Sequence record: NC_055781.1
Direction: 5' to 3' (one strand)
DNA from: Escherichia phage p000v
Length of the DNA stretch: 64,000 nucleotides
Shown: one piece after another, positions 58,193 through 61,017 of the stretch
Position numbering within the stretch: the first letter of the stretch is position 1
Layout: every line of letters starts with the position of its first letter
The notes under the pieces: generated by a model
Told to the model about the DNA's origin: nothing
Databases searched by the model: none
Seen by the model: only the letters and a program-made list of their open reading frames with translations
Translations under genes and position numbers: made by a program

Positions 58193-58651
58193 ATGACTAT
58201 CAATTCGGAAGTTTTTATCCGTCGCAATAAACTCCGTCGAATCTTTGAAACGGAGTTTCGTCAAATCAACGCCAGTATAAAAGATGCTGCAAAGTCTCTT
58301 GGACTACCAGGCTTTCATATAAAGTATTCTCAACATCTCTTAGATCGTGCCATCCAGAGAGAAATAGATGAGAATTACGTTTTTGAATTATTTCATAAAG
58401 TAAAAAATCATGTTAAAGAAGTTGCAGAATTTTTATCAATGCCGGCACGTCCAGATGTTGATGAAGATTTTGTCGAAGGTGTCGAATATCGCCCAGGCCG
58501 TTTAGAAATAACTGACGGAAATCTTTGGTTAGGACTTACAGTCTGTCGCGAAAATCCAGCATTCAAAATGAAGACTCTTCAATGCAGAATGGCTATTATT
58601 AACAGTAAACGACTACCAGGAAAAGCTTCTAAAGCAGTGATTAAAATCTAG
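58193..58651 (+). CDS. regB: RegB-like endoribonuclease
   Basis: 152 aa (T4 RegB 153 aa); MTINSEVFIRRNKLRR... matches my recollection of the RegB N-terminus; location between denV and tk. Confidence 0.55.
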   Translation: MTINSEVFIRRNKLRRIFETEFRQINASIKDAAKSLGLPGFHIKYSQHLLDRAIQREIDENYVFELFHKVKNHVKEVAEFLSMPARPDVDEDFVEGVEYRPGRLEITDGNLWLGLTVCRENPAFKMKTLQCRMAIINSKRLPGKASKAVIKI

Positions 58652-58659
58652 AGGTAAAC

Positions 58660-59202
58660 ATGAGAAAAGCACTACTCGCTGGTCTATTTGCTCTTTCGTT
58701 ATCAGCACATAGCTCCGAGCATACTTTTAGTAATGTCCAACTCGATAACTTGAATTATGCTTATCAGTTTGGGGAACAGTTTTCTAAGGATGGAAAATTT
58801 AAAACGCATGAAAATATGCATAAGAAAGGACTTGGATACATAATGGCCGCAATACTATGGCAGGAATCATCTGCCGGTATTAATCTTAAAGATAAGAAAG
58901 GTCACCATGCGTATGGAATGTTCCAAAACTATCTACCAACAATGAGGGCAAGAATTAACCAGCTCGGTTATAATATGACTGATGCCCAAATTAAGAAAAT
59001 GCTATCTAAGCGGTCTAATTCAGCAAGATGGGCTTATATCGAATTTTCTTATTGGTTAAATATACATAACGGGGATATAAGAAAAGCTATATCCTCATAT
59101 AATGCGGGATGGAAGACAAGTGCTGGAAGTAAATATGCTTCTGAAGTCCTAGAAAAGGCTAATTACCTTAAATCAAATAAACTACTGGAAATAAAAGAAT
59201 GA
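58660..59202 (+). CDS. Secreted lytic transglycosylase (SLT-domain protein with signal peptide)
   Basis: 180 aa; signal peptide MRKALLAGLFALSLSAHS; SLT motifs ILWQESSAG (catalytic Glu-Ser), GMFQ, SYNAGW. Confidence 0.7.
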   Translation: MRKALLAGLFALSLSAHSSEHTFSNVQLDNLNYAYQFGEQFSKDGKFKTHENMHKKGLGYIMAAILWQESSAGINLKDKKGHHAYGMFQNYLPTMRARINQLGYNMTDAQIKKMLSKRSNSARWAYIEFSYWLNIHNGDIRKAISSYNAGWKTSAGSKYASEVLEKANYLKSNKLLEIKE

Positions 59203-59546
59203 CCAAAATGTTGGCTTTAATAGTTGGCTTGGTTTCATTTAACGCTCTTGCTAATACTACATATACTGATGTAACGGAGTATACAAACAGAACGGCGTCT
59301 GATTATTGTGGTAAAAGTCAAGAGTGTAAAGTAGATTTTTCACAAAAATTGTTATATGCATATAAAGACGGAGAAAAAGATGGGGCGTCTAGTAGGTTCA
59401 AGGCGTCTACCTTAATTAAAAGATACTATAAAAAATGGCAAATATTAGAATGCTCGGTGGCGGAACCTAAAGATAAGGCAGCATGCAATTCTATGGTGGA
59501 CCGTCTAGTTGACTCTTATACTAGAGGACTTGCAGCAAGTGATTAA
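59199..59546 (+). CDS. Secreted Cys-rich protein (115 aa) with signal peptide
   Basis: Signal peptide MTKMLALIVGLVSFNALA; six Cys in the mature part; 115 aa corresponds by position and size to T4 vs, but the signal peptide makes that identity uncertain. Confidence 0.5.
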   Translation: MTKMLALIVGLVSFNALANTTYTDVTEYTNRTASDYCGKSQECKVDFSQKLLYAYKDGEKDGASSRFKASTLIKRYYKKWQILECSVAEPKDKAACNSMVDRLVDSYTRGLAASD

Positions 59547-60006
59547 AAACTATATCAAGGGCGATATTGTCGCCCTGTTTTCTGAAGGTAAAAATGTTGC
59601 TCATGGTTGTAACTGTTTCCATACAATGGGCGCAGGAGTAGCCGGGCAATTAGCGAAGGCCTTTCCAAAGATTTTAGAAGCCGATAAACTTCAAACCGAA
59701 TTCGGAGACGAGTCTAAACTTGGGTCTTATTCGGTTTATGAAAAATATTTTAAGACCCATAAAGCTTATTGCTTTAATCTTTATACACAGTTTGAGCCGG
59801 GACCTAATTTTGAGTACTCTGCTTTAATGAATTGTATAATAGAATTAAATGAATTCGGAAAAAATAAGATAACAAAGCCTGTAATTTATATGCCAAGAAT
59901 TGGTGTAGGTATAGGTGGTGGAAACTGGGATATCATTGAAGAAATTCTTGATACATATTCCACTAAACTAGAAATTGTGATTGTTGATTGGGAACCATTG
60001 CTATGA
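59539..60006 (+). CDS. Macro-domain-like protein (putative ADP-ribose binding / hydrolase)
   Basis: Track ORF starts with TTG at 59509 and has no ATG; GTG 59539 with SD GAGGA 10 nt upstream proposed. Motifs GDIVALFSEGKNVAHGCNC...GAGVAG and IGVGIGGGNWD resemble macro domain glycine-rich loops. Confidence 0.45.
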   Translation: MIKNYIKGDIVALFSEGKNVAHGCNCFHTMGAGVAGQLAKAFPKILEADKLQTEFGDESKLGSYSVYEKYFKTHKAYCFNLYTQFEPGPNFEYSALMNCIIELNEFGKNKITKPVIYMPRIGVGIGGGNWDIIEEILDTYSTKLEIVIVDWEPLL

Positions 60007-60215
60007 AAGTACATTACCCACATCCGTTTGATCCTAAAAATAAAGCAGTAATTATTCGTCAATGGGAACGCATTTGTCGTACTAAATGTCCAATTAATAG
60101 TCCACATGACGTAGATAAAGACTACATCGGAACATTCGTTGAATATACCTTTATTGATAAGAAAGGTCGTAAACAACATGTAGAAGAATATTGCTTAAAG
60201 GTGACATGGTTATGA
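60003..60215 (+). CDS. Hypothetical protein
   Basis: Start at M6 of the track ORF (ATGA overlap); 70 aa; CxxC...C...H pattern. Confidence 0.5.
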   Translation: MKVHYPHPFDPKNKAVIIRQWERICRTKCPINSPHDVDKDYIGTFVEYTFIDKKGRKQHVEEYCLKVTWL

Positions 60216-60243
60216 GTCAAACAAAAATTCTTACAGGTGCTAA

Positions 60244-60426
60244 ATGAAATTGACTAAAGAAGAGAAAACTAAACTGTTCGAACTTATCCATGACCTATTG
60301 GATGAGCAAGCAGCCACCAATGCGTACGATGAATATGCTCCTTTAACAGATGAAGAATATCAAGCATTGTTGGAATCATTTGACAGGAAAGAACAAGAAC
60401 TCATTGACTACGTGAATTCACTATAA
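60244..60426 (+). CDS. Hypothetical acidic protein
   Basis: 60 aa ORF just upstream of tk. Confidence 0.5.
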   Translation: MKLTKEEKTKLFELIHDLLDEQAATNAYDEYAPLTDEEYQALLESFDRKEQELIDYVNSL

Positions 60427-60435
60427 GGGACTCTT

Positions 60436-61017
60436 ATGGCTAGTTTAATTTTTACCTATGCCGCTATGAACGCTGGTAAGTCTGCTTCATTACTTACTGC
60501 CGCACATAACTATAAAGAACGTGGCATGGGTGTATTAGTTCTTAAACCGGCTATTGATACTCGCGATTCAAAAGGTGAAATAGTCTCTCGTATCGGTATT
60601 CGTCAGGATGCCAATATAATTACAAAAGACATGGATATCTTTGAATTTTATAAATGGGCAGCAGCACAAAAGGATATTCATTGTGTATTTGTTGACGAAG
60701 CTCAGTTCTTAACTACTGAAAAGGTGTATCAACTTAGTCGTATTGTTGACGTATACAATGTGCCAGTAATGGCATATGGACTACGAACAGATTTTAAAGG
60801 TAATCTATTTGAAGGTTCTCAAGCATTAATGGCTATTGCCGATAAGCTTGTTGAACTTAAAGGTGTCTGTCATTGCGGTAAAAAAGCCACAATGGTAGCT
60901 AGAGTCACGGAAGACGGACTTCCAATTACAGATGGCAGTCAAATTGAAATTGGTGATACCGATAGATACGTGTCATTATGCCGGAAGCATTGGAATGATT
61001 TGACAGGGTTGTTATAA
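60436..61017 (+). CDS. tk: Thymidine kinase
   Basis: 193 aa (T4 Tk 193 aa); P-loop MNAGKS, VDEAQF, zinc-binding CHCG...C...C motif. Confidence 0.93.
   Translation: MASLIFTYAAMNAGKSASLLTAAHNYKERGMGVLVLKPAIDTRDSKGEIVSRIGIRQDANIITKDMDIFEFYKWAAAQKDIHCVFVDEAQFLTTEKVYQLSRIVDVYNVPVMAYGLRTDFKGNLFEGSQALMAIADKLVELKGVCHCGKKATMVARVTEDGLPITDGSQIEIGDTDRYVSLCRKHWNDLTGLL

Follow-up and report, generated by a model that had tools for sequence, protein, structure and literature searches.

What kind of protein is encoded at positions 59509-60006 of the Escherichia phage p000v sequence, where does its translation begin, and what would the protein do during infection? The window analyzed here is the whole 64,000-nucleotide stretch of p000v DNA (sequence record NC_055781.1), and a frame on its plus strand is open throughout this interval, with the peptides GDIVALFSEGKNVAHGCNC, GAGVAG and IGVGIGGGNWD all encoded within it. 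Judged by its sequence, the ORF is the Mosigvirus (RB69-like) ortholog of the bacteriophage T4 gene tk.4, alias adfM (anti-DarT factor, macrodomain). In other words, tk.4 of p000v is an already described T-even gene, the ortholog of a known counter-defense gene, and its neighborhood in the window is as follows.

58193-58651, regB
58660-59202, vs.1
59199-59546, plus strand, vs (valyl-tRNA synthetase modifier), whose TAA stop codon (59544-59546) overlaps the tk.4 start
59539-60006, plus strand, tk.4/adfM coding sequence, 155 amino acids followed by TGA, a predicted stand-alone macrodomain of 17.4 kDa with a pI of 5.4
60003-60215, plus strand, tk.3, the downstream gene, whose own ATG overlaps the tk.4 TGA (ATGA)
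60244-60426, tk.2
60436-61017, tk

The gene order regB, vs.1, vs, tk.4, small tk.x ORFs and tk is common to the window, RB69, T4 and O157 typing phage 3 (O157tp3), and the 2.5 kb around tk.4 show 97-98% identity to Mosigvirus RB69-like phages (phiEC1, O157 typing phage 3 and JS09). The p000v Tk.4 protein aligns over its full length and without gaps with Tk.4 of RB69 (NP_861803; 94% identity) and of T4 (NP_049723; 86% identity), and this full-length identity, together with the location of the gene between vs and tk, identifies it as the ortholog of T4 Tk.4/AdfM. The p000v and T4 proteins differ at 22 of the 155 residues, with loop 2 of the predicted binding site among the affected regions (GGG in p000v, GKG in T4). 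The T4 and RB69 loci resemble that of p000v in the length of the product (155 amino acids), the neighboring genes, the Shine-Dalgarno sequence, the overlap with vs, the residues N25 and Q84, the two predicted binding loops, and a hairpin inside the gene. They differ from it in the set of small ORFs downstream of tk.4, and T4 tk.4 begins with ATG, in contrast to the GTG of p000v, RB69 and other Mosigvirus members.

Relatives of tk.4 were detected by tblastn in 2,774 of the 50,697 phage records, spanning many host genera, and the PHROG 335 profile matches p000v Tk.4 with E=2e-65; together with the Pfam Macro score given below, these figures put the feature well outside chance expectation. In GenBank records, the gene is variously labeled 'macro domain protein', 'ADP-ribose binding module' and 'phosphatase (A1pp motif)', and the A1pp/macro domain of the tk.4 orthologs was noted in 2006 (PMC1524935). 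One homolog, P0113, is labeled as a protein from a bacterial MAG, but its contig is phage-like (ligase, SLT, PNKP, Phage_Y01A), which makes it uninformative on a bacterial origin. A scan for sigma-70 sites returned 9, compared with 14.1 +/- 4.0 in shuffled sequence, and no promoter is claimed.

The preliminary description of this DNA, made from the sequence alone, took the glycine-rich motifs of the protein for the ADP-ribose-binding loops of a macrodomain, and this assignment is borne out by sequence profiles and by the fold of the structural model. The comparison with macrodomain profiles that it had proposed yields a match to Pfam Macro (PF01661) at 26.6 bits, above the cut-off of 22, over profile positions 2-117 of 118. 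In a single-sequence search, the closest PDB sequence is BT1257 (3e-11), the other relatives being Poa1p, SCO6735, DarG and TARG1, and the profile of the 85-member family retrieves the same proteins with E-values from 2e-18 to 3e-12. The 15 best of the 16 profile matches at E<=1e-3 are BT1257, TARG1, SCO6735, Poa1p or DarG, and the 16th and weakest is the uncharacterized TTHA0132 (E 1.9e-05). The AlphaFold (AF2) model of Tk.4, which was built on the family alignment, has a mean pLDDT of 96 and a pTM of 0.91, and its six strands and five helices are predicted to adopt the three-layer alpha/beta/alpha macro fold. Foldseek finds 141 matches to this model in the PDB at E<=1e-3, and all 50 of those listed are macrodomains or designed proteins on a macro scaffold; at the top are TARG1, Poa1p, DarG, BT1257 and SCO6735, each with a probability of 1.00, and viral Mac1-type domains rank below them. 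The profile neighbors and the fold neighbors alike place Tk.4 in the ALC1-like class rather than in the MacroD, PARG or viral Mac1 classes. The profiles and the model together confirm the predicted identity of p000v Tk.4 as an ALC1-like (TARG1/DarG-class) macrodomain. The reading from the sequence alone gave both the macrodomain and the role against ADP-ribosylation, and the locus is mainly useful as a positive control for readings of this kind.

The predicted active site of Tk.4 comprises the following elements.

59602-59646, plus strand, loop 1 of the predicted ADP-ribose site, H22-G36 (HGCNCFHTMGAGVAG), delineated from the family alignment, with the invariant N25 at 59611-59613
59788-59790, plus strand, Q84 (CAG) in the motif N-L-Y-T-Q, aligned with the Lys on which catalysis depends in TARG1 (K84) and DarG (K80)
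59893-59928, plus strand, loop 2, the predicted phosphate-binding loop, P119-W130 (PRIGVGIGGGNW), delineated from the family alignment

The residues N25, C26, M30, G33, A35, D49, G62, N80, Y82 and Q84 are invariant across the family alignment, which has 85 members, and P119, I121, G122, G124, G127, G128 and W130 in loop 2 are nearly so. Loop 1 aligns with 'HCISEDCRMGAGIA' of TARG1 and 'VNTVNxVGVMGKG' of DarG, and loop 2 aligns with 'MPRIGCGLAGGKW' (BT1257), 'LPRIGCGLAGGTW' (SCO6735) and 'PPLGxGNGGLxW' (DarG). The conservation of the two glycine-rich segments (MGAGVAG and PRIGVGIGGGNW) within the family, along with their alignment to the loops of TARG1, DarG and BT1257, indicates that the motifs singled out in the preliminary description are indeed the two predicted ADP-ribose/diphosphate-binding loops.

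Both when the family profile is aligned to TARG1 and in the MAFFT alignment, Q84 falls on the K or Q of TARG1 'LITK', DarG 'FPTK', PhiKZ gp104 'FPTK' and BT1257 'MIGQ', and N25 aligns with a Ser in TARG1 and an Asn in DarG. Where TARG1 has K84 and D125, Tk.4 has Q84 and G126, and because a Gln occupies the aligned Lys position, Tk.4 lacks this catalytic lysine. The catalytic center is predicted to be of the Gln type (N25 and Q84), as in SCO6735, and not of the Lys type found in DarG and TARG1. In SCO6735, Gln85 occupies the position of TARG1 K84 and DarG K80 and is positioned by Asn27; with the substitutions Q85A/E and N27S, the enzyme loses all or almost all of its dT-ADPr hydrolysis, for which a water-mediated mechanism has been proposed (PMC9411070). 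In PhiKZ AdfM, a conserved Asn is needed for activity (construct gp104 N23A; PMC13309987). Tk.4 has both the Gln and the Asn of the SCO6735-like group, with the equivalence of Q84 to Gln85 and of N25 to Asn27 drawn via the TARG1/DarG bridge given in PMC9411070. The direct alignment of Tk.4 with SCO6735 (C-terminal-fragment query, match to 5e3b) covers loop 2 only and leaves the Q84 segment uncovered, so that the equation of Q84 with Gln85 rests on the TARG1 bridge.

The role of the T4 ortholog emerges from genetics. When a T4 transposon library was passed through HIDEN-SEQ on a host carrying DarTG2, only tk.4 emerged as significant, and a clean deletion of tk.4 rendered T4 sensitive to DarTG2; the gene was renamed adfM (bioRxiv 10.1101/2025.11.20.689424). 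The same preprint proposes enzymatic removal of ADP-ribose from DNA, a mechanism that it grades as 'seems likely'. T4 without adfA and adfN still resists DarTG2, which implies a further factor (PMC11825919). In time-resolved omics, T4 Tk.4 belongs to the early class by its RNA and to the middle class by its protein (PMC9697503, supplement), and the T2 tk.4 product was seen in the T2 proteome (10.64898/2026.06.19.733364). By analogy with the T4 ortholog, we infer that the p000v allele shares its activity and that this activity is enzymatic. The suggestion in the preliminary description that a phage macrodomain could reverse the ADP-ribosylation employed by a host defense fits the DarTG2 sensitivity caused by deletion of the 86%-identical T4 gene.

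The explanation in which, taken as a whole, we have considerable confidence is that the tk.4 ortholog of p000v encodes a GTG-started, Gln-type dT-ADPr hydrolase directed against DarTG2. The GTG at 59539 would be translated, with the weak codon probably aided both by the GAGG, which is conserved, and by coupling to the overlapping vs stop, and the 155-amino-acid stand-alone macrodomain would be produced early in infection. The protein would hold the ADP-ribose moiety via its two glycine-rich loops and hydrolyze the ribose-thymine N-glycosidic bond placed by the host DarT2 on phage ssDNA, in TNTC motifs. Removal of dT-ADPr would restore replicable DNA and neutralize the DarTG2 abortive-infection defense. 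Catalysis would most likely rely on the positioning of the substrate and on an activated water, with no lysine involved.

It is improbable that Tk.4 counters DarTG2 without catalysis, that is, by binding and inhibiting DarT2 or by shielding or sequestering ADP-ribosylated DNA as a binder. Consistent with such a mode of action, the catalytically dead variants SCO6735 Q85A, DarG K80A and TARG1 K84A inhibit DarT in vitro by interaction, SCO6735 most of all (PMC9411070), and the enzymatic activity of Tk.4 is only proposed in the preprint (10.1101/2025.11.20.689424). However, PhiKZ AdfM, a different macrodomain in the same role, is enzymatic (PMC13309987), and the 155-amino-acid Tk.4 is devoid of the C-terminal DarT-binding domain of DarG. 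Furthermore, N25, Q84 and the glycine-rich loops, on which hydrolysis depends in relatives, are invariant across 85 diverged family members, as selection on catalysis would be expected to produce, and the invariance of N25 and Q84 in particular argues for catalysis.

We assign a similarly low probability to the possibility that the main substrate of Tk.4 is something other than DarT2-modified DNA, namely, the marks left by the phage's own Alt, ModA and ModB, RNAylation, or RNA and protein ADP-ribosylated by other toxins, with the effect on DarTG2 being one of several activities. T-even phages encode three ADP-ribosyltransferases, a fact that favors substrates of this kind, but the marks of Alt, ModA and ModB are arginine-linked, and we know of no macrodomain of the TARG1/DarG class that cleaves the arginine linkage. 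For reversal of the phage's own marks, the other idea raised in the preliminary description, no support emerged. The spread of relatives over 2,774 phage records and many host genera, possibly beyond the reach of DarTG2, points in the same direction as the three transferases, as does the activity of SCO6735 and TARG1 on protein-linked ADP-ribose (PMC9411070). Nevertheless, the T4 screen picked tk.4 specifically with DarTG2 present (10.1101/2025.11.20.689424).

A metabolic role, either as an ADP-ribose-1''-phosphate phosphatase (Poa1p-like, 'A1pp phosphatase') or as an O-acetyl-ADP-ribose deacetylase, is very unlikely. Database names agree with it: the RefSeq name is 'phosphatase; contains A1pp phosphatase motif', 'phosphatase' is likewise the name of PHROG 335, and relatives in JGI are named 'O-acetyl-ADP-ribose deacetylase'. 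Poa1p is among the closest folds (TM 0.80) and has the H-x-C-N-C motif in common with Tk.4; the N-terminal half, including this motif, aligns well and the C-terminal half poorly. At the position of Q84, however, Poa1p has a Ser rather than a Gln ('lfTSSfgg'; T-S-S as opposed to T-Q-F in Tk.4), and, to our knowledge, the tRNA repair pathway of T4 should not yield Appr-1''-p, which counts against a metabolic function. Moreover, the names trace back to the old SMART A1pp domain label (PMC1524935) and not to assays, and sensitivity to DarTG2 is the only known phenotype (10.1101/2025.11.20.689424).

The preferred explanation, that of a dT-ADPr hydrolase acting against DarTG2, includes a start of translation at the GTG in position 59539, and the comparison of related loci supports this codon, not the TTG at 59509, as the start of tk.4. 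The relevant elements are listed below.

59524-59528, plus strand, Shine-Dalgarno-like GAGGA, with a 10-nt spacer to the GTG at 59539
59539-59541, plus strand, GTG start codon, 3 nt before the vs TAA, giving an 8-nt overlap with vs (GTGATTAA)

The alignment of 4 T-even vs/tk.4 junctions shows that the ATG of T4 is the codon homologous to the GTG of the window, RB69 and O157tp3; in T4, a TAG directly precedes this ATG, and the vs/tk.4 junction reads ATGA. Among 40 related loci that match from residue 1 onward, ATG occupies the homologous position in 34, and in 13 of these, the preceding codon is an in-frame stop. GTG is found at this position in five other loci, namely, RB69, O157tp3 and the loci L004, L005 and L025. 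In L004 (95% identical), a TAG lies 3 nt upstream of its own GTG, a stop that excludes initiation at the TTGs located 9 and 30 nt before the GTG, the equivalents of those at 59530 and 59509. The GAGG is retained, with unchanged spacing, in T4 and in T4-like loci at 55-59% identity, the N-terminus of the family reads M-I-x-x-x-I-x-G-D, and tk.4 of RB69 and O157tp3 is annotated from the homologous GTG. The stop of vs overlaps the start of tk.4, which makes translational coupling of the two genes likely.

The preliminary description held that the ORF has no ATG and that either the GTG or the TTG at 59509 must serve as the start. The former statement is literally wrong, given the in-frame ATGs at 59626 (codon 30), 59827 and 59890, but all three are internal to the conserved domain, downstream of both its first beta-strand and the HGCNC motif; none of them can be the start, and the non-ATG initiation stands. 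Of the two codons proposed, the comparative evidence retains the GTG, and the stops upstream in relatives eliminate the TTG; the GAGGA 10 nt before the GTG is present as described. A third in-frame TTG, at 59530, had gone unmentioned; it adjoins the Shine-Dalgarno sequence and is excluded. A 165-amino-acid product from the TTG at 59509, or initiation at the TTG at 59530, can practically be dismissed even though no stop interrupts the frame as far back as 59509 in the window, in RB69 or in O157tp3: T4 has a TAG before its ATG and L004 a TAG before its GTG, 34 of the 40 homologs have ATG at the GTG position, the TTG at 59530 is only 1 nt away from GAGGA (59524-59528), and the 10 extra residues encoded from 59509 are vs-gene sequence in another frame.

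Shortly downstream of the start, the coding sequence contains a further element.

59558-59583, plus strand, terminator-like hairpin in codons 7-13, AGGGCGAT-ATT-GTCGCCCT followed by GTTTTCT, found in a scan for terminator-like structures

The hairpin proper (59558-59576) lies 20 nt into tk.4 and has a computed stability of -13.0 kcal/mol (RNAfold), a value that only 0.26% of the synonymous recodings of the hairpin peptide under phage codon usage attain, which is a significant result. T4, RB69 and T4-like loci at 55-59% identity retain the hairpin, with invariant stems and a variable Ile codon in the loop; locus L014 shows compensatory synonymous changes (AAG to AAA along with CTG to TTG), in L025 the same codons form another hairpin and encode a different peptide, and no such hairpin is present in other lineages. 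Covariation counts exceed those of the controls modestly, and the pairwise synonymous-codon test was not significant, with 6 of 7 codons kept in the hairpin compared to ~55% elsewhere (p=0.08-0.17). A search of the T4 RefSeq record for an annotated terminator or promoter returned CDS features only, and the literature, searched for terminators of T4 in the vicinity of regB and vs, yielded nothing specific. The hairpin may be an attenuator or a 3'-end element of the regB-vs.1-vs transcript, or else an mRNA-stability hairpin; its location, with a U-run, just inside tk.4 is a small point for specialists.

Comparison with the known macrodomains helps to define the place of Tk.4 among them. The best Foldseek match, human TARG1/OARD1 (4j5r), acts on Glu/Asp-linked protein ADP-ribose by means of a K84/D125 dyad, where Tk.4 has Q84/G126. 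The closest solved relative by sequence is BT1257 from Bacteroides thetaiotaomicron (PDB 2fg1, 2afc; profile E=2e-18), which is of the Gln type too and has no known function.

The macrodomain of DarG (DarG2; PDB 5m31, 5m3e, 5m3i, 7omu) shares with Tk.4 the fold and the two loops and, as would be expected by analogy, the substrate, dT-ADPr made by DarT2 on ssDNA. In DarG, however, the catalytic Lys resides in the motif F-P-T-K (K80 in Thermus aquaticus DarG), at which Tk.4 has T-Q with the invariant Gln84, and DarG contains a C-terminal DarT-binding domain and adjoins darT, neither of which is the case for Tk.4 with its neighbors vs and tk.3. The similarity between single sequences of Tk.4 and DarG is at an E of about 1e-3. 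With the NCBIfam DarG model (NF048014), whose cut-off is 250 bits, Tk.4 scores 28.4 bits and covers positions 11-146 of 338; with the PADLOC DarG model, it scores 30.8 bits over the macro part only (positions 4-145 of 329). Given the 28 bits against 250 and the lack of the catalytic Lys, the DarT-binding domain and an adjacent darT, Tk.4 is not a DarG, though a DarG-like action on the same substrate is plausible.

Gp104 of the chimallivirus PhiKZ, also named AdfM, is, like Tk.4, a stand-alone phage macrodomain that acts against DarTG2; its removal of ADP-ribose from DNA was shown biochemically, and it enters the phage nucleus (PMC13309987). Gp104 is of the Lys type (FPTK) and matches DarG at E=1e-24. 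Compared with the profile of the Tk.4 family by hhalign, it yields a probability of 96.7% at 17% identity, with a low-confidence register in the Q/K segment that is off by one; MAFFT with both DarG macrodomains, gp104, TARG1 and BT1257 gives the expected register of T-Q against T-K. By their sequences, PhiKZ gp104 and the T-even AdfM represent different macrodomain subfamilies despite sharing one name, and the T-even protein should not be conflated with the Lys-type AdfM of PhiKZ.

A further counterpart is SCO6735 of Streptomyces coelicolor (PDB 5e3b), a thymidine-linked DNA ADP-ribosyl hydrolase that protects against DarT (PMC9411070). Like Tk.4, it is a stand-alone ALC1-like protein with a Gln in place of the Lys and with the Asn, and the two have the loop 2 motif PRIGxGxxGGxW in common. 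The differences are that SCO6735 is only ~21% identical to Tk.4 and is encoded by a bacterial chromosomal gene, that Tk.4 seems to offer no clear match for the two lysines, Lys34 and Lys89, with which SCO6735 contacts DNA, and that the spacing from the Gln to the Gly is Q-x-G in SCO6735 and Q-F-E-P-G in Tk.4. A broader reading, which we offer as tentative and on balance doubtful, joins these observations: AdfM of the Tk.4 type would be not a captured DarG but a separate Gln-type lineage (BT1257/SCO6735-like) that removes dT-ADPr by a lysine-independent, water-mediated reaction; two mechanistically different macrodomains, of the Tk.4 type and the PhiKZ gp104 type, would have been recruited by phages to counter the same defense; and expression of tk.4 may be tuned by the hairpin in codons 7-13, the formation of which would depend on how efficiently translation initiates at the weak, vs-coupled start. 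Because its putative catalytic residue is Gln and not Lys, mechanistic analogies for the T-even AdfM are better drawn to SCO6735 than to DarG.

The coding sequence of the macrodomain gene tk.4 harbors the following element in the window:

59558-59583, + strand: terminator-like hairpin with a U-run, within tk.4 codons 7-13

This hairpin is kept in T4, RB69 and relatives at 55-59% identity, and equal stability is reached by only 0.26% of synonymous recodings. Among the related loci with Tk.4 homologues, L014 carries compensatory synonymous changes in the hairpin, and in L025 a different hairpin occupies this site; several other T4-like lineages have none. GTG is likewise the corresponding start codon (position 2501) of the distant homologue in L025, which shows 42% identity. 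In three further loci, L035, L057 and L064, the tblastn match opens at a non-start codon (TTA, ATA, CTG; position 2501), so their actual start codons lie a few codons away from that point.

One Tk.4 homologue (L084; GCA_051660865.1, contig JBOFQK010000158) is assigned to a bacterial MAG of Culicoidibacterales. The 40-kb contig carries DNA ligase, SLT, PNKP and Phage_Y01A genes beside the homologue, and is probably phage DNA binned into this MAG.

Compared with O157 typing phage 3 (L003), the window is ~175 nt shorter between tk.3 and tk.2 (60213-60247), the interval that in the typing phage contains an additional small ORF:

L003 2113-2319: 207-nt ORF between tk.3 and tk.2 of O157 typing phage 3

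The deletion has its endpoints in the short direct repeat GCTAAATG / CCTAAATG, and it left in the window an 11-codon remnant, ATGAGTCAAACAAAAATTCTTACAGGTGCTAAATGA, with a stop overlapping the ATG of tk.2. In RB69, tk.3 is absent too, so the group of small ORFs named tk.x makes up a variable cassette. In the T4 RefSeq, the tk.3 product is named 'Tk.2 conserved hypothetical protein'.

The vs.1 orthologue (window 58660-59202; L003 561-1103, KP869101 ECTP3_00294) is an SLT transglycosylase-like protein with a signal peptide. KP869101 labels it 'endoribonuclease RegB', apparently a carry-over from the adjoining gene.

The name AdfM is borne by two distinct phage macrodomain subfamilies, PhiKZ gp104 (PMC13309987) and T-even Tk.4. 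The PhiKZ protein is Lys-type, with FPTK at the catalytic position, and is near DarG, the DarTG2 antitoxin (E=1e-24), whereas Tk.4 (window 59539-60006) is Gln-type, with YTQ, and is near the bacterial macrodomains BT1257 and SCO6735.
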